From: Gemmatimonadales bacterium
GTDB taxonomy: Bacteria; Gemmatimonadota; Gemmatimonadetes; Gemmatimonadales; GWC2-71-9
Length of the DNA: 49,274 nucleotides
Direction of reading: 5' to 3'
Assembly: GCA_038321865.1 (NCBI GenBank)
Contig: JBBQFH010000026.1
Location: 1 to 49,274, forward strand
The position numbers and the translations under genes are program-made. Positions within the stretch are counted from its first letter, which is position 1. The number at the start of each line of letters is the position of its first letter. Below, in pieces: positions 25,168-43,039 of the stretch. The notes below the pieces were generated by a model. That model ran no database searches, was not told where the DNA came from, and worked only from the letters and a program-made list of their open reading frames with translations.

Positions 25168-25668
25168 ATGGAACTCGATACGCTGCAGTCGCTGTACATA
25201 GATGAGCTGAAGGACCTTTGGAGCGCCGAGAAGCAGATCCTCCGGGCCCTGCCGAAGATGATTAAGGCGGTCACCCACCGTGACCTCAAGCGCGCCTTCA
25301 CGACCCACGAACGTCAGACGCGGCAGCACGTCGCCCGGCTCGAGCGCATCTGCAAGCAGCTCGGCGTGAGCCCGCGGGGCAAGAAGTGCGAAGGGATGGA
25401 AGGGTTGCTCAAGGAAGGCTCCGGCCTGATTCGCGAGCGCCCTGAAGCCGATGTGCTCGATGCCGGCCTGCTGTCCGCGGCCCAGCATGTGGAGCATTAC
25501 GAGATGGCCGGCTATGGCACCGTCCGGACCTGGGCCCGGCTCCTCGGCCGGAACGATCAGGCGGACGTGCTGCAGCAGACGCTGGACGAAGAGGGCGAGA
25601 CCGACCACCTTCTGACAGACCTGGCCGAACGGCTGATCAACGTAGAGGCGATGAACGACGAGGACTGA
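25168..25668 (+). CDS. Ferritin-like DUF892 (YciE/YciF family) stress protein
   Basis: ELKDLWSAEKQ, HERQT..HVARLE, KCEGMEGLLKEG, AQHVEHYEMAGYG, TLDEEGETD; GAGGAG RBS. Confidence 0.92.
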   Translation: MELDTLQSLYIDELKDLWSAEKQILRALPKMIKAVTHRDLKRAFTTHERQTRQHVARLERICKQLGVSPRGKKCEGMEGLLKEGSGLIRERPEADVLDAGLLSAAQHVEHYEMAGYGTVRTWARLLGRNDQADVLQQTLDEEGETDHLLTDLAERLINVEAMNDED

Positions 25669-25844
25669 ACGGGAACAACTGCAGGGATCCCGGTGACCAG
25701 GGTCGTGTCGCCGGCTCCCTCATCCCCCCGCCTGCCAGTGGTGGCGACCTACCAGCCGGTGGGGCCCCAGGCGGCCAGCGAAGATCCGCTCTGACCGCTG
25801 CGGCGGGTCTCGCGGATCGGACGGAGGATGGTAGCTTGAACTCC

Positions 25845-26279
25845 ATGTCAACCTTCGCATCGACTCGGCGCGACTTCCTCTCCGGATGCGCTGCGGCGCT
25901 GGTCATCCGCCTCGGCCCGGTCCGGCTCCATGCACGCTGCGGGGCAGAACTCGGGCCGCGGCGTGCGCCGCATCCAACCCCGCGCCCCGGCATCGACGGA
26001 TCGAAAGTCCTGTCTGTCGAAAAGCTGACCGATACGCCGGACGCAATTCCGGCCTTCGAGGCTGCCCGCAAGGTCCCCCAGATCCTCGACGGCATCCGTT
26101 GCCACTGCGGTTGTGCCGACCTCAAGGGCTTTTATTCGCTGCTCAGCTGCTACGAAGGGGACGGCATGGCGCGTATGTGTGTGATCTGCCAGGGTCAGGC
26201 CCGGCTGGCGGCCCGGCTCTTCGGCGCGGGACGCTCGCTGGATGAAATTCGTGCCGCGATCGATGCGAGGTTTGGATGA
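25845..26279 (+). CDS. Tat-exported Cys-rich protein, PCYCGC-motif-like
   Basis: Twin-arginine motif TRRDFL; LDGIRCHCGC, LLSCY, CVIC, IRAAIDARF. Confidence 0.75.
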   Translation: MSTFASTRRDFLSGCAAALVIRLGPVRLHARCGAELGPRRAPHPTPRPGIDGSKVLSVEKLTDTPDAIPAFEAARKVPQILDGIRCHCGCADLKGFYSLLSCYEGDGMARMCVICQGQARLAARLFGAGRSLDEIRAAIDARFG

Positions 26280-31400: not shown

Positions 31401-32882
31401 CTACATCGGGGGCGCGAGCAGGGCGGCGAGCGCCGTCATCCCCTGGGCCGCCGCCCGGTCCGCCGCCGTCTGTCCCTCCGGATTGCGCACTCCCGGATCG
31501 GCCCCGTGGGCCAGAAACAGCCGGGCGATCTCGATCGCAAGCCCTTCGTCCTCAGCCGGAAGCCACATCAGCGGTGTCTGTCCGCCGCCGCCGATCCGCC
31601 CCAGCTCGGGGCGCTCGGACAACAGCTCACGCAGGCGATCCACCTTCCCTACGAACGCCAGCTCCCACACATCCCGACTGTACCCGGCCAGCAGGTCGAT
31701 CATCGGCTGGTGCCGGTAGTAGACGGCGCGGCCGAGCGGCGACCCATGATACCGCGTCTCGACGGCGTCGATTTCGGCGCCGCGCGCGATCAGCAGCTGG
31801 GCGACTGCGACGGCGTTATGACTGGACGCCACGTGCAGTGCCCGTTCGTTCTCCTCATCCCGCACATCCGGAGAATAGCCGAGATCGAGCAGCAGCGCCG
31901 CCGCGTCGGGTCGGTTCCGCGCAGCGGCGCGGAAGAGCGGGCGCGGATCGGCCAGGTACTCCGGATGGGCCTCGAGCGCGGTCCGCACCGCCTCGGCATC
32001 CAGCCGGAGCGCCGCGTCGGCAAGCAGTTCGACTCCGTCCAGCAAAACATCAGTGCTCCGCGCCCCGTGCCGCAGCAGCAGCTCGGCGATCTCAGCCTGG
32101 CCCGCGCGAACCGCCGCATCGTAGAGCGGCCGCCCCTTCAATCGCCCGCTCCGTCCCGGCGGCGCATCGGGATTCGCGCCGTGATCGAGACACCACTCGG
32201 CGAGCGCGATGTCACCCCGGTCTATCGCCAGCTCCAGGTGCCAGCGGGCCCCGGACCCGTAGCCGCCCATGTCGAGCATGCGCCACTCGGGGTCGTCCCA
32301 GTCGGCGCCCCGGCCGAGCTTGACGGCACGTGCGTGCGCCACGCACAGATACCAGAGCGCATCGGTGCCGAAGGCGATGTCGTAGATGACCTGATCGTCG
32401 TACAGGTTCGCGCCGCGGGCGAGGAGCAGCGAGACCAGTCCATCACGACACTGGTGCGGCGGGCGGTTCTCCTCGCCCTCACCGATGGCGCCGACCAGCG
32501 GCGTGTACCGGCTGCCACCGGCCATGAAGAACACCGTCGGATCGGCGCCGGCGTCGAGCAGGAGCCGCGCGATCGCGACTGCGTTCTCCGTTACCGGCGC
32601 GAGCGGGAGGCGAGTGAAGGCGAGATACAGCAGCGGCTCCCAATCCTTCGGGCCGCCGCGCGCCGTCGCGAGATCCGGACTCTCGCGGAGGGCGCGCTCC
32701 ACGCCGGTGATGTCGCCGGTGACGACCCTGGTGGCGAAGCCTGCCGCCGCGAGCCCGGGATGCTGCTCCAGCAGGCGCATCGCGGTGTGCACCGCGCCAA
32801 CGTGCGCGCTCCGGCCGCGGATATGATGATCGGGACAGGCAGAGCGGAGGAATTGGTCGAGCAGCCGGCCGGCCGGCATCAC
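31401..32882 (-). CDS. Ankyrin repeat protein
   Basis: Repeated TPL/PL..A...G....LL..GAD/N units (YTPLVGAI, ALHVASS, SPLGRAV, QTPLMWL). GTGA overlap with the upstream kinase stop. Confidence 0.85.
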   Translation of the reverse strand: MMPAGRLLDQFLRSACPDHHIRGRSAHVGAVHTAMRLLEQHPGLAAAGFATRVVTGDITGVERALRESPDLATARGGPKDWEPLLYLAFTRLPLAPVTENAVAIARLLLDAGADPTVFFMAGGSRYTPLVGAIGEGEENRPPHQCRDGLVSLLLARGANLYDDQVIYDIAFGTDALWYLCVAHARAVKLGRGADWDDPEWRMLDMGGYGSGARWHLELAIDRGDIALAEWCLDHGANPDAPPGRSGRLKGRPLYDAAVRAGQAEIAELLLRHGARSTDVLLDGVELLADAALRLDAEAVRTALEAHPEYLADPRPLFRAAARNRPDAAALLLDLGYSPDVRDEENERALHVASSHNAVAVAQLLIARGAEIDAVETRYHGSPLGRAVYYRHQPMIDLLAGYSRDVWELAFVGKVDRLRELLSERPELGRIGGGGQTPLMWLPAEDEGLAIEIARLFLAHGADPGVRNPEGQTAADRAAAQGMTALAALLAPPM

Positions 32883-35530
32883 TTCTGGGAAAGCGTCGCG
32901 GGCCAGTTGGCGACCACGGTCAGCGGTACGGCGTTCCGCCGGTCGTCGTGCAGGATCAGGAGCCGGCCATCCGGAGCCATGCTCAGACTCACGATCCCGT
33001 CCGGCGCGCCGCGGACGCGGGCCGGCTTGCCGACGGCCAGCGACGGACCCTCCGAGATCGAAGCGGCCATCAGTTGCCGCGTCGCGTCGATGAAGTAGAG
33101 CGTGTGGCCGTCCGGGCTCCAGGCGAAAGGCGCGGCGGCGTTCCCGCCCTCGGTCAGGGCGCCCTCCTGGGAGACCGGCCAGTGCACCGCGGCGTCCGGC
33201 AAATCCATCACGTACACTTCCGAGCGGCCGCTCTGATTGGAGAGATACGCCACGAGCTTCCCGGTCGGCGCGATGACCGGACTCGATTCGTCAGCCGGGG
33301 TCGCGTAGAGCACTTCCACCGGCGAGCCGGGCGCCGCGAGCGATACCCGCGTGATATCGATTCCGGTGCTGCCTACCTGCCGGGAGCCCAGGGCAAAGGC
33401 GCCGTTCGGCGCCCAGGTCTCGATCGGGCCGACGCCTGGCCCATAGGCGCTGTATGTCGCGAGCTCGCGCCGGTCGGCGGACAGAATGTGCGTGACGCTG
33501 TCGTTGGCGCTCTTCACCGCGATGCGCGTGCCGTCCGGCGACCAGGCCAGGGTGTACGACTGATCCGGTTTCGTCGTCAGCCTGTCCCACGACTCCGTCG
33601 CCGGCGTGTAGATCCAGGCATCCGCCAGCGGGCTCTCCGCCGATGCGCGGTCCACCAGCACCCGCTTGCCGTCGGAGGAAAGGTCGGCCGACAGGTACGG
33701 TCCGGGTGCGCTGGCCGGGGTCTGGGTGCGCGTCGCCGGATCGAACCAGTCCATCTGCCGGTCCTGCCCTCGCGGTCCGCGATATACCAGCAAACCCTCG
33801 ACGACCGAGAAGTTGCCGAGGTACTTGAAGGGCCAGGTCTCGATGCCGGGCACCACCGCAACCGCGTTGCCGGACACCGATGGCCGATCGGGCGAGAAGG
33901 GCTGTGCGAAGACCGCGCCGTCCCGCACGAAGAAGAGGTAGCCTCGGCTGAAGGCGATATTCGACGGCTGGTCGAGTACGCGGTGCGTGTCCCGCGACCC
34001 CAGATCCCCCGCGAGCACCTGCCCCTCCCGGGCCTTGCCGCTGCCCTCGACGAACAGGAAGTGATGGCCATCCGGCAGAAAGTACGGCAGCCGGTGCGTC
34101 ACCTGATCACCGCGAGGCAGGACGGTCACCACCTGAGGCGTGCCGCCGGAGGCGGAGACGCGGTACAGTGGCGTGAACACGTCGGGCGCGTAGAGAATGA
34201 CTCCGTCCGCATTCCACGCACCGCCGCGCCCGTTCAGCGCCGGGGCCAGGTCCCGGACCGTGCCGCTGGCGAGGTCGATCCGCTTGAGCCGGCCCTCAGC
34301 GAAAAAGCCGAGACTCGCCCCGTCGTGCGACCAGAAGGGATAGATCGCGTTGACGGTGCCGGTAAGCTGGCGAGCGGCTCCGGTAGTGAGCTCGCGCACC
34401 CACAGCGCGCGCGTGCCGTTGCACAGAGCCACGAACGCGACCGAGGATCCGTCGGGCGACAGCTGCACCAGGTTGCTCGAGCCGACGTCGGCGAAATCGC
34501 ATGCACCGGCCGGCGCCAGCAGCGACGCCCGAAGCGCCGGCGCCGGCGGCGGGCCGCCTCGATGCAACAGCAGGCCCGCCATCACCCCGAGCGCCGCGGC
34601 GGGCATCCACGCCCAGCGGAGCGCGCCCACCCATCGGCTGGCCGGTGCGGCGGCGGCCCGCGAGCCGCGCGGACGGGTCGCGCGTGTGGCGCCGCTCGCT
34701 CCGTCGCCGCCGAGCGCGGCCCCGAATTCCGCGGCGCTGGCGAACCGGTCCGCCGGCAGCTTCTCGAGCGCCCGGAACACGGCGTCCTCCACCGCGGGCG
34801 GCACGTACTTCCGCTGCATCGTGAGCGATCGCGGCTCCTCGGTCATCACCCGGGCGATGATCGCCTGCGCGGTAGGGCCGGTGAACGGCGGCTCGCCGAC
34901 GAGCATCTCATAGGTGACGCAGCCGAGCGCGTACACGTCGCTTCGCGGGCCGATCTCGCGCTCGCCCATCGCCTGCTCGGGCGACATGTAGTGCGGCGTT
35001 CCCAGGCTCATCCCGGTCTCGGTCATGCGCGAGCCGGCGGTGCTCACCGCCAGCGCAATGCCGAAGTCGGCCACCAGCGCGCTGCCGTCGTGCAGCAGAA
35101 TATTTTCCGGCTTGATGTCCCGGTGGATCACGCCGTGGCGGTGGGCGTAGTCGAGTGCGCCGGCCACCTCGCGGGCCAGGCGCACCGCGTCTTCCACGGG
35201 GAGCTGGTGTTCGCGGGCGATGCGGTCGCGGAGTGACACCCCTTCGACGTAGGGCATCACATAGAAGAGGAATCCGTCGGCCGCGCCGGAGTCGAACAGC
35301 GGGAGGATATGCGGGTGCTGCAGATTCGCCGTGGTCTTGATCTCGCTCAGGAACCGGTCGGCGCCGATCACGGCGGCGAGCTCCGGCCGGAGCACCTTGA
35401 CCGCCACCTTTCGGTCGTGCTTCCGGTCCTGCGCGAGGTAGACCGTGGCCATCCCGCCGGCCCCGAGCTCGCGCTCAAGGACGTACCGGTCAATCAGCGC
35501 GGCGGTCAGGCGATCTGGTGTGGGGAGCAC
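32879..35530 (-). CDS. Membrane Ser/Thr protein kinase with C-terminal TolB/WD40-like beta-propeller
   Basis: GAGGM, VAVK, HRDIKPEN, DFG, GTPHYMSPE; TM; repeated SPDG/WSPDG blades. Confidence 0.93.
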   Translation of the reverse strand: MLPTPDRLTAALIDRYVLERELGAGGMATVYLAQDRKHDRKVAVKVLRPELAAVIGADRFLSEIKTTANLQHPHILPLFDSGAADGFLFYVMPYVEGVSLRDRIAREHQLPVEDAVRLAREVAGALDYAHRHGVIHRDIKPENILLHDGSALVADFGIALAVSTAGSRMTETGMSLGTPHYMSPEQAMGEREIGPRSDVYALGCVTYEMLVGEPPFTGPTAQAIIARVMTEEPRSLTMQRKYVPPAVEDAVFRALEKLPADRFASAAEFGAALGGDGASGATRATRPRGSRAAAAPASRWVGALRWAWMPAAALGVMAGLLLHRGGPPPAPALRASLLAPAGACDFADVGSSNLVQLSPDGSSVAFVALCNGTRALWVRELTTGAARQLTGTVNAIYPFWSHDGASLGFFAEGRLKRIDLASGTVRDLAPALNGRGGAWNADGVILYAPDVFTPLYRVSASGGTPQVVTVLPRGDQVTHRLPYFLPDGHHFLFVEGSGKAREGQVLAGDLGSRDTHRVLDQPSNIAFSRGYLFFVRDGAVFAQPFSPDRPSVSGNAVAVVPGIETWPFKYLGNFSVVEGLLVYRGPRGQDRQMDWFDPATRTQTPASAPGPYLSADLSSDGKRVLVDRASAESPLADAWIYTPATESWDRLTTKPDQSYTLAWSPDGTRIAVKSANDSVTHILSADRRELATYSAYGPGVGPIETWAPNGAFALGSRQVGSTGIDITRVSLAAPGSPVEVLYATPADESSPVIAPTGKLVAYLSNQSGRSEVYVMDLPDAAVHWPVSQEGALTEGGNAAAPFAWSPDGHTLYFIDATRQLMAASISEGPSLAVGKPARVRGAPDGIVSLSMAPDGRLLILHDDRRNAVPLTVVANWPATLSQK

Positions 35531-35616
35531 TGCCTGTACAATACCGCGTGCGGGAGAGGGGCGGAAGCATCATCCCCGGCTGAGGGATCCCCTGCCGGGC
35601 GCCGAGCCGATGGCGT

Positions 35617-35655
35617 AAAACACCGCCGCCGACGGCTGCAGCCATCGGCGGCGGT
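35617..35655 (-). terminator. Intrinsic terminator of the orphan gene
   Basis: Minus strand ACCGCCGCCGATGGC-TGCA-GCCGTCGGCGGCGGT followed by GTTTT, about 30 nt after the stop at 35687. Confidence 0.7.
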
Positions 35656-35686
35656 CAGTACCCGCTTCCACTGCTCCTTCCCGGCC

Positions 35687-36400
35687 TCATGCCGCGGGCC
35701 GGTCCTCCGCTCCGGTCACCGGCGACGTCGCCGGAGCCGGGACTGCTGCCGGCGCACGATCAGGCGCCGGGTGCGGCACGGAGGCGCCGCTGCGGGCGCT
35801 GACCCACGCGCCCAGGGGATCGCTCCCCTTCTCGAACCGGGCCCGATTGAGCCCGTCCATCACCTTCACCGCCTGCACGATCTCCCGTGCCACCTTCTCC
35901 AGCTCGGCGCTGGCGCCGGTGTGAGCCCGCTTGCCGCTGGACGCCTGATCAAGTGCCGCGTCGTACTTCGCGATCAGCTGGCCCAACCCGTTGAGCACCG
36001 TTTCGGACAGGCCGTTCTGCACCAGCACGTCCTTGTTGGCGAGGGCGTCGGCGGCGATGCGACCGGCGGTCGTCCGGAACGCCATGAACGACGTCCCCCG
36101 GCCCATTCCGAACTTCTGCCTGAGCTCCGGCACCTCCGCCGAGGCCACACGGCCGACCCGCGCCACGTGGTCGAGATGCCCCTGCTTCAGCGCGACTCGC
36201 AGGTCGTGCTTGATGCCGGTCGCGGCGTGCTCCTCGATGAGCCCCTCCTGCTGCTTCGCGGCCAACTCCGCCGCCAGGCTGAGCAGCCCTCCGAGACGGG
36301 TCACGGTGGCGGCGAACCCGGTGGTGTCCTCCGGGTGCTCGCGGCTGTGGTCGAACACCCGCTTCCCCATCTCGATCGTCCTACGAATTGTCGCTCTCAT
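35687..36400 (-). CDS. Hypothetical all-alpha-helical protein (no family recognised) with Pro/Ala tail
   Basis: GAGGA RBS before ATG 36400; strong GC3 bias; amphipathic helices; no signal peptide or TM; own terminator. Confidence 0.8.
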   Translation of the reverse strand: MRATIRRTIEMGKRVFDHSREHPEDTTGFAATVTRLGGLLSLAAELAAKQQEGLIEEHAATGIKHDLRVALKQGHLDHVARVGRVASAEVPELRQKFGMGRGTSFMAFRTTAGRIAADALANKDVLVQNGLSETVLNGLGQLIAKYDAALDQASSGKRAHTGASAELEKVAREIVQAVKVMDGLNRARFEKGSDPLGAWVSARSGASVPHPAPDRAPAAVPAPATSPVTGAEDRPAA

Positions 36401-36668
36401 ACGATCCTCACTTGCTGGCCGGCGGCGGCCGGGATCGCGCCGGTGACGATGACGAGGGACTGCTGGCCGAGGGTGCCCGACCTCCATGCGGCCGGGCGCC
36501 CCTAATGCATCGGGCGTGCCATTCGTTGCGCGGCATTCGAGCGGCATCCGGCCCTTTCATTAGATGGAGGGATTCACGATGTTTTCACGCTCGTATTCTC
36601 TTAGTGAGTGTCCCTGATCGAGGACACGCATCGTCCTGTTTCAATCCGATGTTTCGTGCGTACCGGCG

Positions 36669-37163
36669 CGGAAAAACAAAATGGACTCCCGGAATCGGTT
36701 CACGGAGTTGCGGACCACTCCATCGGGAACTCGGATGATCGAGTCGGTATCCCGGATGGGTGAGTCGATGGCGCGGAGGGAAGCGCCGGATACCCGGGCA
36801 GCTGCGTCGGTGTCCCGGATGCACGCATCGGGTGCCCGGATGTTGAGGTCGGGCCCCCGGAAGGAATGCGCGATTGGCCGGAGGAACGTGTCGGGTGCGC
36901 GGAGGAACCGGTGGGCCCCGTGGACGATCGGACGCGGCCGGCGGATCGTTCGCATCGGGTGGCGGAGCCGCCGCAGGGAGGTCCGGCGCAGCATACGGAG
37001 GCACAGACGGTGACGAGGCGCCTTCGGAACGAGCCAATGGCCTCGCGGAGCGAACCGATGGCGGTGCTGACGGAGTCGATGGAGGCGCGAGCTGTCCTGA
37101 AATGGACGTGGATTATTGCGTCGGGTGCCAAATGGAATTTTCGGGAGCGCGGAGCGCCGTGGA
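36669..37163. repeat. Degenerate tandem array with 21-bp period (24 units, last one partial)
   Basis: Units start at 36669 + 21n up to 36984, then 37004 + 21n up to 37109, then 37129 and 37150. 16 of 24 units begin with exact CGGA. A second motif TCGG/ATGG recurs at unit positions 13-16. Confidence 0.85.
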
Positions 37164-37688
37164 TCACGCGGGGGCGATCACCCGGGCAATCGCGCTGATC
37201 GTGTTCCAGTTCCGCGTCGTGACCGGCACCCCGAAGACCCGATCGAGCGCGCCGAGATAGCCGATGGCCTTCATGTGGCGGCGATACAGCCCGAAGACGA
37301 ATCGATGCTCCCGCCCGAGTATCGTCAGCAACCACTCGCCAGCATCGGGAAAGTTTATCGGTCCGGCCGGAGGTGACCGGGGCACGCGCGCGAGCACGCT
37401 GACGAAGGGCACTACGTCAGGCCGCGCGGCGTGCCCCGCGAACGGGTCGACCTCCACCAGTCGGGTGATGTCCCGTCCCTGGCAGATCATGATCTCCGTC
37501 TCGAACGGCAGCCGCCGGGCGACTTCCGCGCGCAGCTCCGACAGACTCACCGGGTGCCGGATCACGAACGTCCCCGCGGCGCCGATGTTGACGGCACCGA
37601 GATGCTGGAGCTCCCGGGCGAGCGCCGCGGGGCGGAAGGTCCGGTGCCCGCCGACGTTGACGCCGCGGAGAAAGACCACGAGCGACAC
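37164..37688 (-). CDS. DUF1697 family protein
   Basis: VVFLRGVNVGG at the N-terminus, TTRNWNT at the C-terminus; GGAGG RBS. Confidence 0.88.
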   Translation of the reverse strand: MSLVVFLRGVNVGGHRTFRPAALARELQHLGAVNIGAAGTFVIRHPVSLSELRAEVARRLPFETEIMICQGRDITRLVEVDPFAGHAARPDVVPFVSVLARVPRSPPAGPINFPDAGEWLLTILGREHRFVFGLYRRHMKAIGYLGALDRVFGVPVTTRNWNTISAIARVIAPA

Positions 37689-37739
37689 CCGTTACCTCCC
37701 ACGAACCCGGTCGTCATTCTGCCGGCGAGGACGACCCCA

Positions 37740-40406
37740 TCACGGTTTCAACTTCGCCTGCAGATCCGCAAACCAGTTGACCACCTCGACCAGCCGAGTC
37801 GTCGGCGCCGCCGCGCCGGGCGGTGCCAGAAACACGAAGCGCCCGTCCCGGGTGACCTCGAATGCCTGGTGGTACCCCGGATGGGCGAAACGCCTCGCGT
37901 CGAACAGCGGCTTCAGCTCAGTCACATTGAAGGTCGTGCCGGCTCCGAGCTCTGCCGCGACGAGGCGACCGGCGTCGTCCATGAAGAACAACTCCCTGCC
38001 GTCCGCCGACCAGACCGGTGACGTCCCCCCGCCGTTGGAGACCTGCCATCGCCCGGCGTCGCTGTTGGGAAACGGCCGGACGAAGATCTGGCTGGCTCCC
38101 GCGTCGCTCGAGGCGTACGCCACCCACCGCCCGTCCGGGGACATGGCGGGCTGGAGCTCGGTCGAGGCGCTGGTCGCCACGCGCACCATGCCTGAATCTC
38201 CGTTCGCCCGCACCGCCAGAATGTCACCGTTGCCCGCCGCGCCGGTCTCGGTGCGCACCAGGATCCATTGTCCATCGTGCGACCAGGTCACTTCCTGGGT
38301 CGCACGGTCGAGGTGCACCAGGCGCCGCTCGCTGCCACCGCCGTCCACAGCGCGGGCGTAGATGTCACCGCCACTGCCGCTGTCCCGCACGAACGCGACC
38401 TCCCGGCCGTCGGGCGACCAGGCCGGGCGGCGATCACGGCCGCTGAAGGTGAGCCGGGTGAAGGGACCCTTGTCCAGCTGCTTGATCCAGATGTCGAGCC
38501 CGGCGCCCGGCGTGCTCACTCCCACCGCGACTCGGCGCCCATCGGGCGACAGCGCGAACGAGTTGAAGTCTCCGGTCCACGACGGATCGAACGGCGCGCC
38601 GACCCCGCCGCGACCCGCCTGCTGCAACGTGACGATGGTCGCGTTCAGCCCGCCGACCGCATACACGACTGTTCCGGATGCGGACCAGGCCAGGTCGGTG
38701 ATCGCGAGGGTCTGCGCCACACCCTGGAGCACCGGCACCGCGGCGCCGCGAACCTCGAGCGTCGACAGGTCGAAGGGCGCCACCAGCGCCACCCCGTCGC
38801 GTCGCACGTAGAGCAGGTGGCCGGACGGCAGGTACCATCCCATCGTGACGTCATTGAGCAGGAGCCGGTGCCGCCCCGACCTGAGGTCGAGGACGTGGAG
38901 CCCCATGGTCACGCAGCCGGAGCCACAGGCTTGAAAGAGCACGCCGCGGGCACGCGGCAGCGGAGTCGGGAGCATCGGCGCCAGACCCTTGAAGTCGCTG
39001 TCCGGCAGGGCGACGGTGACCGCTCCGCCCGACTCGCTCACGCGGCGGAGGCCAAGCAGTGAGAGGTCGGGAAACACCAGTGTGCCGTCATCGAGCCAGG
39101 CGAGACCGAAGCCACCGCCGGCCGAGTCGGCGATGGTGGCGCTCGGCCCGCCCTCTACGCGCACTTTCCTGAGGTGTCCATCGGCCACGTAGGCCAGCCA
39201 GCGGCCATCCGGCGAGAACACCGGGCTGCTCGCGTGGTCGGTGCCCGGAAGCAACTGCGGTTCGAGTGCCTCGCGCCGCTTGATCCAGAGTCTGGCGAGC
39301 GTGTCGCCCACGAAGGCGAGCCGAGATGCATCCGGTGAGAGCGCCAGCGGTGGGCCGGTCAGTATCTCGGTCTGGAGCTGCACGCTGTCGCCCAGCGAGA
39401 TGTAGCGCTGCTCGATGGGACGTGGTCCTGCACTCCGCGCCCGGGCCCATCCCCAGACCCCCAACCCGATGGCCAGCAGCGCCACGGCGCTCGCGAAGTG
39501 GAAACGCCTGCGCCACACGGCGCCGGCCGCGAACGAGCCGGGGCTGGTGGCAGCCAGCCGGGTCGTGATCGCCGGCCCCTGCCCCGCAAGCGCCTCGGCG
39601 AACTGCGCCGCGGTAGCGAACCGGTCGGCCGGAAGTTTCTCCAGCGCGTGCAGCACCGCCGCTTCCACCTGCGGCGGCACGCTCCGCCGCTGGATGGCAA
39701 GCCGCCTCGGCTCCTCGGTCATCACCCGCGCGATGATCGCCTGCGCGGTGGGACCGGTGAACGGCGGTTCGCCAGCCAGCATTTCGTACGTGACGCAGCC
39801 CAGGGCGTAGACGTCGCTCCGGGCGGTGATCTCGCGCTCGCCCATCGCCTGCTCGGGACTCATGTAGTGCGGGGTGCCGAGCGACATGCCGGTCTCGGTC
39901 ATCCGGCTGCCGGCCTTGCTTGCGGCCAGCGCAATGCCGAAGTCGGCGACGAGCGCGCTGCCGTCGTGCAGCAGGATGTTCTCCGGCTTGATATCGCGGT
40001 GGATGACGCCGTGGCGGTGAGCGTAGTCGAGCGCGCCCGCCACCTCGCGGGCGATCCGGACCGCGTCGTCCACCGGGAGCTGGTGCTCCCGCGTGACGCG
40101 GTCGCGGAGCGAGATCCCCTCGACATACGGCATGACGTAGAACAGGAACGAGTCGGCTTCGCCGGAATCGAACAGCGGCAGGATGTGCGGGTGCTGAAGA
40201 TTGGCCGTGGTCTTGATCTCGGCCAGGAACCGCTCGGCGCCGATCACGGCGGCCAACTCGGGCCGGAGCACCTTGACCGCGACCTTCCGGTCGTGGCGGA
40301 GGTCCTGCGCCAGATAGACCGTCGCCATGCCACCCGCACCCAGCTCGCGCTCGAGGCGGTAGCGGTCGGCGAGCGCGGCGGTGAGCCGTGCGAATGCGTC
40401 GGTCAT
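37740..40406 (-). CDS. Membrane Ser/Thr protein kinase with TolB/WD40-like beta-propeller
   Basis: Intact Hanks motifs (GAGGM, VAVK, HRDIKPEN, DFG, YMSPE); TM; SPDG repeats; VVNW terminus. Confidence 0.93.
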   Translation of the reverse strand: MTDAFARLTAALADRYRLERELGAGGMATVYLAQDLRHDRKVAVKVLRPELAAVIGAERFLAEIKTTANLQHPHILPLFDSGEADSFLFYVMPYVEGISLRDRVTREHQLPVDDAVRIAREVAGALDYAHRHGVIHRDIKPENILLHDGSALVADFGIALAASKAGSRMTETGMSLGTPHYMSPEQAMGEREITARSDVYALGCVTYEMLAGEPPFTGPTAQAIIARVMTEEPRRLAIQRRSVPPQVEAAVLHALEKLPADRFATAAQFAEALAGQGPAITTRLAATSPGSFAAGAVWRRRFHFASAVALLAIGLGVWGWARARSAGPRPIEQRYISLGDSVQLQTEILTGPPLALSPDASRLAFVGDTLARLWIKRREALEPQLLPGTDHASSPVFSPDGRWLAYVADGHLRKVRVEGGPSATIADSAGGGFGLAWLDDGTLVFPDLSLLGLRRVSESGGAVTVALPDSDFKGLAPMLPTPLPRARGVLFQACGSGCVTMGLHVLDLRSGRHRLLLNDVTMGWYLPSGHLLYVRRDGVALVAPFDLSTLEVRGAAVPVLQGVAQTLAITDLAWSASGTVVYAVGGLNATIVTLQQAGRGGVGAPFDPSWTGDFNSFALSPDGRRVAVGVSTPGAGLDIWIKQLDKGPFTRLTFSGRDRRPAWSPDGREVAFVRDSGSGGDIYARAVDGGGSERRLVHLDRATQEVTWSHDGQWILVRTETGAAGNGDILAVRANGDSGMVRVATSASTELQPAMSPDGRWVAYASSDAGASQIFVRPFPNSDAGRWQVSNGGGTSPVWSADGRELFFMDDAGRLVAAELGAGTTFNVTELKPLFDARRFAHPGYHQAFEVTRDGRFVFLAPPGAAAPTTRLVEVVNWFADLQAKLKP

Positions 40407-43039
40407 CGGCGCACTGCCGCCCGCCGATCGTGCAGCAGGTTCTCGAACACATTGTGCACCCCGACCAGGGCGGACCGGCCGCGGCCGCCGCTGACGAGGA
40501 TGAAATGGCCGCCATCCGGCGCGACGTCGTACTCGCGAAAGTCTCCGCCATCCATGAATGACCCGGCGAAGAGGGCGCGGCGCCCGGTGACGGCGAACGT
40601 GGCACCGGCGTCAACCGCGGCGGTCATCAGGCTGTCACCGGCGCGATAGTACAGCTCCCGTCCATTGGGCGACCACACGGGCTCCGCGCCGCCCTGCAAG
40701 GAAATCGACATCCGTGCGCCGAGTCCCGGATACGGCCGGACGTACACCTCCGTGCGTCCGGTCTCGTCGGACTGATAGGCGAGCCAGCGCCCGTCGGGAG
40801 AGAGCGCCGGGGCCCGCTCGCCGAAGCTGCCGGGGAGGAGTAACACCGACGCGGGAGCGGAGTCGAAGGCGAGCCGGCGTATTCCCGCCCGGTCGCTGGC
40901 ATCCTCCGTGTAGATCAGGCTGCGGCCGTCAGGGGTCACCGATCCTCCGAAGCGCGATCCGTTGGCCACCATGAGGCTGTCCGGGCGCCCGCTCCCGTCC
41001 GATGCGATCCACCACAGGTCATCGTTGCTCGAGTAGACCAGGCGACGACCGTCCGGGGTCCAGATCGGGCGGTTGCTGATGCCGTCGGTCGTCAGGCGCG
41101 ACCAGGTGTACTGGCTGAGATCGACGACCCACACATCCCTGGTCAGCGTCGTGGGATCGGTGATGCCGACCGCGAGTCGCCGCCCGTCAGGTGAGATCCG
41201 CGGATTGGAGAAGATGCGCGGCTCGCCCGGGACGCGGCTCACCTGTCCCGTGCGCGAAACCAGGAGCAGGGTGCGCCGGAGCGCGCCGCCCCCCTGGGAG
41301 TAGATGATCGCGCCCGAACGCGAGACGGCTGCGCGGGCCGCGAACACGTCCGGCTGGGAGACGTCACGGGCGATGGTGACCGGGGGACCGGTCGGCTGCA
41401 CGCGCTTCTTGTCGAAGGGCACGGCGAGCAGGCTGCCGCCCGGCGTGCCCACCACGACGAAACCCGCATCCACCCATTGTGATGAGAACCCCGGCTGGTC
41501 GAAACGGGTGATATGGCCCGTCCCGAGATCGAGGGCGGCAAGGCGGCTGCTGGTCCCGGTGAACAGGCTGAACAGCACGGTGCGGGTGTTGGGCAGCAGG
41601 ATGGGCGCGCGATACGCTTCCGTGGGGGTGCCGGGATTGGCCAGCTCGCGCGGATGTCCGCCGCGCGCCGGCACCGACATGAGCACCCGCGAGTTCACGT
41701 TGCCGGGCGGGGCGGTGTGATACCGCACGGTATCGTCGGTTCCCCAGTCGTACTGGTAGCCCGGGCAGGAATCGCAGATGACGACTGGTGAGCCGCCGGC
41801 GAGCGACACCTTGAGCAACCGGGCATTCTCGGTGAAGCCGAGCCAGCTGCCGTCGGGCGAGAAGAACGGGGAGCTGCCGCGGGCGCCGCCGGGGACCAGT
41901 ACCGGCTCGAGCTGGTCCAGCGAGCGAACCATGATGCCGACACGGGAGAGATAGGCGAACTTCGATCCGTCGGGGGCGTATGCCAGCTGGGCACTGCTCG
42001 CATCGTTGACGGCGGTGCTGTCGGTCAGCGGAATCTGGTAGCGCACGACGGGAGGCACCGGACGCTCGCCCGGGGACGAGGTCGCCCGGCCGGCGGCGAG
42101 ACCGAGCGCGATACCCGCCGCGCCGACCGCGAGCAGCGCCAGCGCACCGGGCCGTCGCGACGTCTTGGGCGCGCTCCGCATGACGGTGGTGCGCGTCCGC
42201 GTCAGGCTGCCATCGGCCAGCGCCGCCCCGAACCCGCTTGCCGTCGCGAAGCGGTCCGCCGGCAGCTTTTCGAGCGCGTGCATCACCGCGGCCTCGACGT
42301 GCTCCGGCACCGCCTTCCGCTGGGCCGAGATCCCGCGCGGCTCCTCGGTGATCAGCCGCGCGACGATGGCCTGCACCGTCGGCCCGGTGAACGGCGGCTC
42401 CCCGACCAGCATCTCGTAGGTGACCGCGCCCAGCGCATAGACATCGCTCCGCGCGTCGATCCCCCGCTCCCCCATCGCCTGTTCCGGCGACATGTATTGC
42501 GGCGTGCCGAGGGACAGGCCGGTCTGCGTCATCCGCTGGCCGGCGGCCGTCTGGACCGCCAGCGCGATCCCGAAGTCGGCCACCAGCGCGTGGCCGCCCT
42601 GGAGCAGGATGTTCTCGGGCTTGATGTCGCGGTGGATCACACCGAGCCCGTGCGCGTACCCCAGCGCGTCGGCCACCTCGCGCGCGATGAGGATCGCATC
42701 GTCGATCGGCAGCTGCCGCTCCCGCTCGAGCCGCGTGCGCAGCGTCTCGCCGGTGACCAGCGGCATCACGTAATAGAGGAGGCCGTCGGCATCGCCCGAG
42801 TCGAGCAGCGGGAGGATGTGCGGGTGCTGCAGGCGCGCGGTGGTCCGGATCTCGGACAAAAACCGCTCGCTGCCCAGCGCCGCACCGAGGTCGGGATGCA
42901 GCACCTTGATCGCGACGTCGCGCTCATGCCGGAGGTCATGCGCGAGGTAGACCGTGGCCATGCCACCCGCACCGATCTCACGCTCGATGCGATATCGGTC
43001 GGCGAGGGCGGCGGCGAGGCGACCGGCGGCGTCGCTCAT
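40403..43039 (-). CDS. Membrane Ser/Thr protein kinase with TolB/WD40-like beta-propeller
   Basis: Intact Hanks motifs; TM; SPDG/TPDG repeats. Confidence 0.93.
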   Translation of the reverse strand: MSDAAGRLAAALADRYRIEREIGAGGMATVYLAHDLRHERDVAIKVLHPDLGAALGSERFLSEIRTTARLQHPHILPLLDSGDADGLLYYVMPLVTGETLRTRLERERQLPIDDAILIAREVADALGYAHGLGVIHRDIKPENILLQGGHALVADFGIALAVQTAAGQRMTQTGLSLGTPQYMSPEQAMGERGIDARSDVYALGAVTYEMLVGEPPFTGPTVQAIVARLITEEPRGISAQRKAVPEHVEAAVMHALEKLPADRFATASGFGAALADGSLTRTRTTVMRSAPKTSRRPGALALLAVGAAGIALGLAAGRATSSPGERPVPPVVRYQIPLTDSTAVNDASSAQLAYAPDGSKFAYLSRVGIMVRSLDQLEPVLVPGGARGSSPFFSPDGSWLGFTENARLLKVSLAGGSPVVICDSCPGYQYDWGTDDTVRYHTAPPGNVNSRVLMSVPARGGHPRELANPGTPTEAYRAPILLPNTRTVLFSLFTGTSSRLAALDLGTGHITRFDQPGFSSQWVDAGFVVVGTPGGSLLAVPFDKKRVQPTGPPVTIARDVSQPDVFAARAAVSRSGAIIYSQGGGALRRTLLLVSRTGQVSRVPGEPRIFSNPRISPDGRRLAVGITDPTTLTRDVWVVDLSQYTWSRLTTDGISNRPIWTPDGRRLVYSSNDDLWWIASDGSGRPDSLMVANGSRFGGSVTPDGRSLIYTEDASDRAGIRRLAFDSAPASVLLLPGSFGERAPALSPDGRWLAYQSDETGRTEVYVRPYPGLGARMSISLQGGAEPVWSPNGRELYYRAGDSLMTAAVDAGATFAVTGRRALFAGSFMDGGDFREYDVAPDGGHFILVSGGRGRSALVGVHNVFENLLHDRRAAVRR

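Follow-up and report, generated by a model that had tools for sequence, protein, structure and literature searches.

How does a stretch of DNA between two genes keep a strict step of 21 bases while its letters change from one step to the next, and what might read it? This question is raised by a locus in Gemmatimonadales bacterium (GenBank assembly GCA_038321865.1), on a 49,274-nucleotide stretch of contig JBBQFH010000026.1, the whole of which is called the window here. The sequencing run that contains this DNA is a sediment metagenome. At 36669-37163, about 23 repeats at 21-base steps (24 units were tabulated) occupy the gap between the stop codon of a DUF1697 gene (37164) and the control region of a minus-strand gene (36400-35687).

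The array is confirmed as real and lies far above shuffled sequence. Its core (36669-36983) consists of 15 degenerate 21-bp units in which CGGA, or TCCG on the strand of the gene, recurs in strict phase. All 13 CGGA positions listed in the preliminary description, from 36669 to 36963, were found in exact 21-bp phase, and the exceptions are as claimed there (CGGG at 36795 and TGGA at 36921), leaving 13 of the 15 core units exact. The autocorrelation proposed as a check gave single-base values of 0.52, 0.46, and 0.50 at lags 21, 42, and 63, with 0.23-0.36 at other lags. The best phased 4-mer occurs in 0.87 of the units, compared with a maximum of 0.38 in 500 shuffles. The array is the strongest 21-bp signal of the whole window, and the array statistics gave no 7-bp or 10/11-bp sub-period. 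Tandem Repeats Finder, another check proposed, missed it at score 30.

No two of the 24 tabulated units are the same, as had been stated, and the first 15 share a mean pairwise identity of 0.47. A second motif, TCGG or ATGG at positions 13-16, is exact in only seven of the first 15 units, and positions 15-16 are conserved in 13 of them. The distal units (36984-37163), which adjoin the DUF1697 stop codon, are more decayed and contain two one-base phase slips. The second motif in these units (37025-37067, 37109, and 37129) agrees with the slips, but the distal part is weak and makes their exact placement impossible. A Logan contig over 36362-37800 carries the same letters without gaps; it perhaps comes from the same sample, and thus is not an independent reading of the slip region.

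The surroundings of the array are best explained as a self-contained cassette, made up of the array, a palindrome, a sigma-54-type promoter motif, the gene of a helical protein, and a terminator-like hairpin. The palindrome, TGTC-N10-GACA (18 bp, 36609-36626), lies some 120 bp upstream of the putative start of transcription and is a candidate activator site (UAS); it matches the consensus given for the GlrR site (PMC3045617). A sigma-54-type -24/-12 motif, GG-N10-GC, is found on the minus strand at 36505-36521. It is followed on that strand by a putative 5' leader of about 95 nt (36401-36495) with a GAGGA ribosome-binding motif at 36409-36405; the leader region can be aligned with that of the C65 paralog, and its folding is not above that of shuffles. 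The orphan-family gene itself (35687-36400, minus strand, 237 amino acids) is followed by a GC-rich hairpin and T tract (35615-35654, minus strand), and similar hairpins lie 3' of the paralogs. The cassette is situated within a cluster of Ser/Thr kinase-propeller genes and an ankyrin-repeat gene (31401-43039), in which stop and start codons of the kinase-propeller cluster overlap at 32879/32882 and 40403/40406. The DUF1697 gene (37164-37688, minus strand) was rejected as a partner of the array and is taken as a neighbour only: in the eight loci of DUF1697 homologs, no 21-bp array attains z 6.

Judged by its letters, the putative promoter core is of conventional sigma-54 design. The GG-N10-GC motif is present in all five paralogs of the genome and at a fixed place in 71 of 98 homologous loci, with other spacings in 0-3 loci each and the reverse strand in two. 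The genome encodes RpoN and ten strong matches to activator domains of the enhancer-binding type, and the palindrome at 36609-36626 falls within the span, about 80-150 bp upstream of the start, that is expected of an activator site. Exact TGTC-N10-GACA occurs in 18 of 98 upstream regions, none of 93 downstream and three of 95 far upstream; if one mismatch is allowed, the counts are 37/98, 5/93, and 15/95. A sigma-70 promoter was also sought, and none was found.

The partnership with the adjacent orphan gene that had been proposed for the array is supported by its relatives. When 401 genomes of the same bacterial family were searched with a profile, 104 had the gene (332 matches), and a search of clusters gave at least 2,755 cluster representatives at 50% identity for the gene family. 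The 99 loci analysed are the best-scoring matches only, after four duplicates, two partial hits, and two unrelated loci were dropped; they come from one bacterial family and are related, hence not statistically independent. A 21-bp array at z 6 or more stands upstream of the gene in 74 of the 96 loci with enough flank, and downstream in three of 90, with a background of four in 300 random windows. In the other 22 of 96 loci the signal is below z 6, and these include paralog C3, which retains the promoter motif. Relatives of the protein carry Gemmatimonadota or Gemmatimonadaceae as their label.

Besides this gene, the genome encodes four paralogs of it; the sigma-54 motif precedes all five copies, while the arrays are strong in three, weak in one, and absent in one. 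Of the 67 sigma-54-like sites in the genome, five have an upstream 21-bp signal of at least z 6, and the top four of these stand at the promoters of four of the five paralogs. Twelve distant homologs from five genomes of another family all have 21, 42, or 63 as the top upstream period (ten clearly, two weakly), and a sigma-54-like motif occurs in only two of the 12; the nine that were aligned are 17-23% identical to the window protein. Since the distant homologs keep a period of 21n, mostly without a sigma-54-like motif, the array follows the gene and belongs to the gene family more than to a promoter type. Neighbouring genes are unconserved (100 fragments fall into 91 clusters), and the distribution of the gene is patchy and multi-copy. 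The preliminary reading is thus supported on the gene partnership and the phased DNA, but it overlooked the sigma-54-type motif, the palindrome, the five paralogs, and the divergence of unit sequence between loci.

Several single loci depart from this layout. At paralog C3 (G000:C3 27771, L019) the sigma-54 motif is present and the array undetectable; in L010 the promoter motif is near-identical and the array strong. L014 is a truncated homolog of 79 amino acids that has the promoter motif without an array. At G000:C5 ~25490-25900 (in L005), there is a strong 21-bp array with neither a family gene nor a sigma-54 motif. Over 175 bp it is 71% identical to the array of the C33 paralog, and the ORF that it precedes encodes 188 amino acids, has an HEXXH-like motif, and finds no match in Pfam. 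Degenerate 21-bp repeats at G000:C3 ~52450-52900 (in L006) directly follow an integrase-like gene, presumably of the integron-integrase type, and similar integrase fragments adjoin three homologous cassettes. Pyrimidine-rich 7-bp tandem repeats lie downstream of the homolog in L040 and L053.

What persists between loci is the spacing, whereas the unit sequence is locus-specific and replaceable wholesale. In an unbiased period scan of 65 robust loci, 58 had a period of 21, 42, or 63, and the others gave 41 twice, 20, 64, 8 twice, and 18. Four of these exceptions were inspected, L092, L021, L043, and L067, and proved to be arrays of 41, 41, 20, and 64 bp in the usual upstream position, clearest in L092 and L043. 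Such non-triplet periods average 20-21.3 bp per unit and fit two helical turns rather than seven codons. The unit consensus differs locus by locus, and unit similarity is at background below about 65% protein identity. Neither a strand-specific motif common to the loci nor a dyad within the units was found; phased CG, TC/GA, and AT steps are enriched, with the same bias genome-wide. In L082 and L101 the proteins are 93% identical and the arrays dissimilar, one a near-perfect 42-mer and the other a degenerate 21-mer, and L075, when compared with L047, has 63-bp higher-order units. The homogeneous arrays of L034 and L036 have an apparent inverted likeness that was judged compatible with chance.

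By prediction, the gene encodes a basic helical bundle of elongated shape. In the AlphaFold model (pLDDT 93, pTM 0.80) there are two long helices, of 60 and 56 residues, and a shorter helix comes before each of them. The two halves of the protein align weakly (E 6e-4, probability 30%), as a weak two-fold repeat within it. Family members tend to be basic, with a median pI of 9.6 and a net positive charge in 91% of 97, though the median net charge is only +4. Arg/Lys columns are conserved, and His160, His78, and Trp199 strongly so. Searches of Pfam, the PDB, and folds gave no match that names a function and no recognisable DNA-binding domain. DUF6261 (PF19775) has no profile match to the protein or its alignments; a genome-wide search for the family matched no control either. 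The PQLLE family (NCBIfam NF052641) matches 37 of 110 alignment members weakly, with E values up to 0.1 and 9e-8 at best, and not the window protein; the term is absent from the literature searched.

Arrays of sites upstream of promoters are known from other systems. Sigma-54 promoters with upstream sites are described for GlrR/QseF at Escherichia coli glmY (PMC3045617) and NorR at norVW (PMC2831303), where the same sources state that several upstream sites and flanking DNA matter. The present cassette resembles them in combining a -24/-12 motif with a TGTC-N10-GACA palindrome at enhancer distance. Unlike glmY and norVW, which have about three sequence-defined sites, it has 10-30 units beyond the palindrome that are unlike the palindrome and differ by locus, and arrays persist in homologs without the sigma-54 motif. 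[quoted passage not shown] The spacing of about two helical turns upstream of a promoter is shared with the arrays studied here, which however are direct repeats without a dyad, have a period of mostly 21, and lie well away from the core promoter.

Plasmid centromere and iteron arrays, such as parC and sopC, are phased direct repeats beside the gene of their binding protein, and the cassette likewise has a phased direct-repeat array beside the gene of a likely binding protein. It differs in that no NTPase or Rep is found among the neighbours, the protein has no RHH or HTH match, the units are only about 47% alike, and the cassettes are chromosomal and multi-copy; the locus has no plasmid match. 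The array lacks the defining features of enhancer arrays (copies or half-sites with a dyad), centromeres or iterons, RNA arrays, and coding repeats. The literature searched, which includes few subscription papers, yielded no description of this module, and the array is a real and apparently unpublished variant of multi-site upstream DNA arrays.

Whether the array could instead be translated or act as RNA was already asked in the preliminary description. That it is a decayed or fast-evolving heptad-repeat ORF is now very improbable. The period is mostly a multiple of three, some array frames are heptad-like (here IRAPDAC IRDTDAA), and the plus-strand ORF at 36681-37013 begins with ATG; in P0159 and P0052, database gene calls, probably with over-called starts, run through the heptad-like repeats of the array into the gene. 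The GC-by-frame amplitude of 68 array cores is 0.205, against 0.179 in column-permuted nulls (p 0.06), and 0.24 in the window array. However, this is far under the values of the adjacent genes (0.41) and of three coding repeats (0.40-0.61), and conservation varies less among the codon positions than in the null. The cores have on average 2.6 of six frames open versus 2.4 expected, and the 27 and 32 ATG-started ORFs that span a core likewise match the shuffles (25.6 and 29.7 expected). One-base indels are present within arrays, and the non-triplet periods of relatives (41, 20, and 64 bp) already largely refute a coding origin. A synonymous-excess test was set aside, as it failed on its own positive controls and has no power. 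The same results speak for phased non-coding DNA, and the array is most likely non-coding. That a divergent promoter or read-through yields, from the array, short RNAs or a repetitive scaffold RNA bound by the protein, as in CsrB or TIGR systems, is improbable too. The units of this locus do consist of two short constant motifs around variable bases, the folding of its core is somewhat better than that of shuffles (z -1.9 and -2.5), and CGGAUG/CGGAGG on its plus strand presumably resembles CsrA sites. Yet the array lies upstream of the promoter motif, and in 25 loci, the first of the 51 cores, the folding z averages -0.3 and -0.7; the structured RNA proposed earlier gains no support. A CsrA sponge was rejected, as no CsrA was found in this 90%-complete genome. 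The loci have no common motif and no match to Rfam. In line with the statement that this is not a CRISPR, no repeat or box motif shared by the loci, no RNA family match, and no cognate protein of a CRISPR, TIGR, or CsrB-type array was found.

Two further explanations accept the array as DNA and differ on its reader. Its units might be weak sites that together form a lattice for an activator acting in trans, a sigma-54 enhancer-binding protein or a response regulator, that would nucleate at the palindrome and spread upstream as BvgA does on its six weak sites 22 bp apart (PMC7250471). The position of the array directly upstream of the GlrR-like palindrome and sigma-54 motif suits such a lattice, as do tandem palindromes 21 bp apart in L065 and L070. 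Similarity of operator to array peaks at offsets 0 and -1 in 20 non-independent loci, a weak hint of shared register, and GGA/TCC is phased in 12 of 51 loci versus 4.9 expected, a weak hint of enrichment; the phase of array and promoter could be compared in three usable pairs only. We regard an activator lattice as unlikely, since the units lack a dyad and do not score as operator copies (mean z 0.01; half-sites -0.12), the palindrome occurs in only 37 of 98 loci even with a mismatch, only one other sigma-54-like site of the genome reaches z 6, and the distant homologs with arrays are mostly without the motif. A near-neutral minisatellite, with fixed-step duplication tied to the gene or its movement and no reader at all, has a small chance of being the answer. 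It would account for the wholesale turnover, the homogeneous and seemingly young arrays of L034 and L036, the 42- and 63-bp higher-order units, the many substitutions between arrays of close relatives, the detached copy at C5, and a patchy, multi-copy gene in unconserved context. It is at odds with an upstream-only position and a period of about 21 that persist across proteins 17-23% identical, and with decayed arrays that hold phase over ten or more units; moreover, genes for a recombinase, transposase, or reverse transcriptase do not regularly adjoin the homologous cassettes.

The explanation that we tentatively prefer is a DNA lattice read by its spacing, most likely by the product of the cassette itself. 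Because the array tracks the gene across promoter types, the cassette's own product suggests itself as the reader, and the basic charge of the protein with its conserved Arg/Lys columns fits this role. The array would then be the far-upstream, non-coding part of the cassette, on which the spacing of about two turns may allow the basic helical protein to load cooperatively along one face of the helix. Tandem duplication of a local 21-mer would generate the units and point mutation would erode them, with selection on spacing rather than on sequence. A separate sigma-54 activator would bind the palindrome and fire the promoter, and occupancy of the lattice may tune expression or organise the local DNA. 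Against such lattice reading stand the lack of a recognisable DNA-binding domain, the median charge of only +4, the dissimilar arrays beside 93%-identical proteins (L082 and L101), which argue against base-specific recognition, the absence of a common strand-specific motif and of a dyad, the C5 array without a family gene, and the 22 of 96 loci below z 6.

DUF6261 and related helical families of Bacteroidota, Verrucomicrobiota, and Myxococcota are possible relatives of the protein. The Atlas points to them weakly, through clusters that contain DUF6261 (0.85-0.87) and, for a distant homolog, through predicted-structure neighbours (TM 0.63-0.69 over about 200 residues), with similar predicted folds in Bacteroidota and Verrucomicrobiota. 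That widespread two-part modules exist in several phyla, in which a rod-shaped helical protein without a known DNA-binding domain polymerises on a lattice set by helical spacing and not by sequence, with the period inherited and the letters rebuilt by tandem duplication, is possible but doubtful.

In known cis-regulatory arrays, sequence is conserved because a protein reads the bases. Here, spacing is conserved while letters are replaced even between near-identical genes, and the family concerned numbers 2,755 clusters or more at 50% identity. If the protein reads spacing, this would be a new mode of DNA recognition or promoter architecture. The idea is directly testable with one small soluble protein and a 500-bp fragment and, if true, would reveal what a large family without a name does, in a phylum of soils and sediments that is abundant and little studied.
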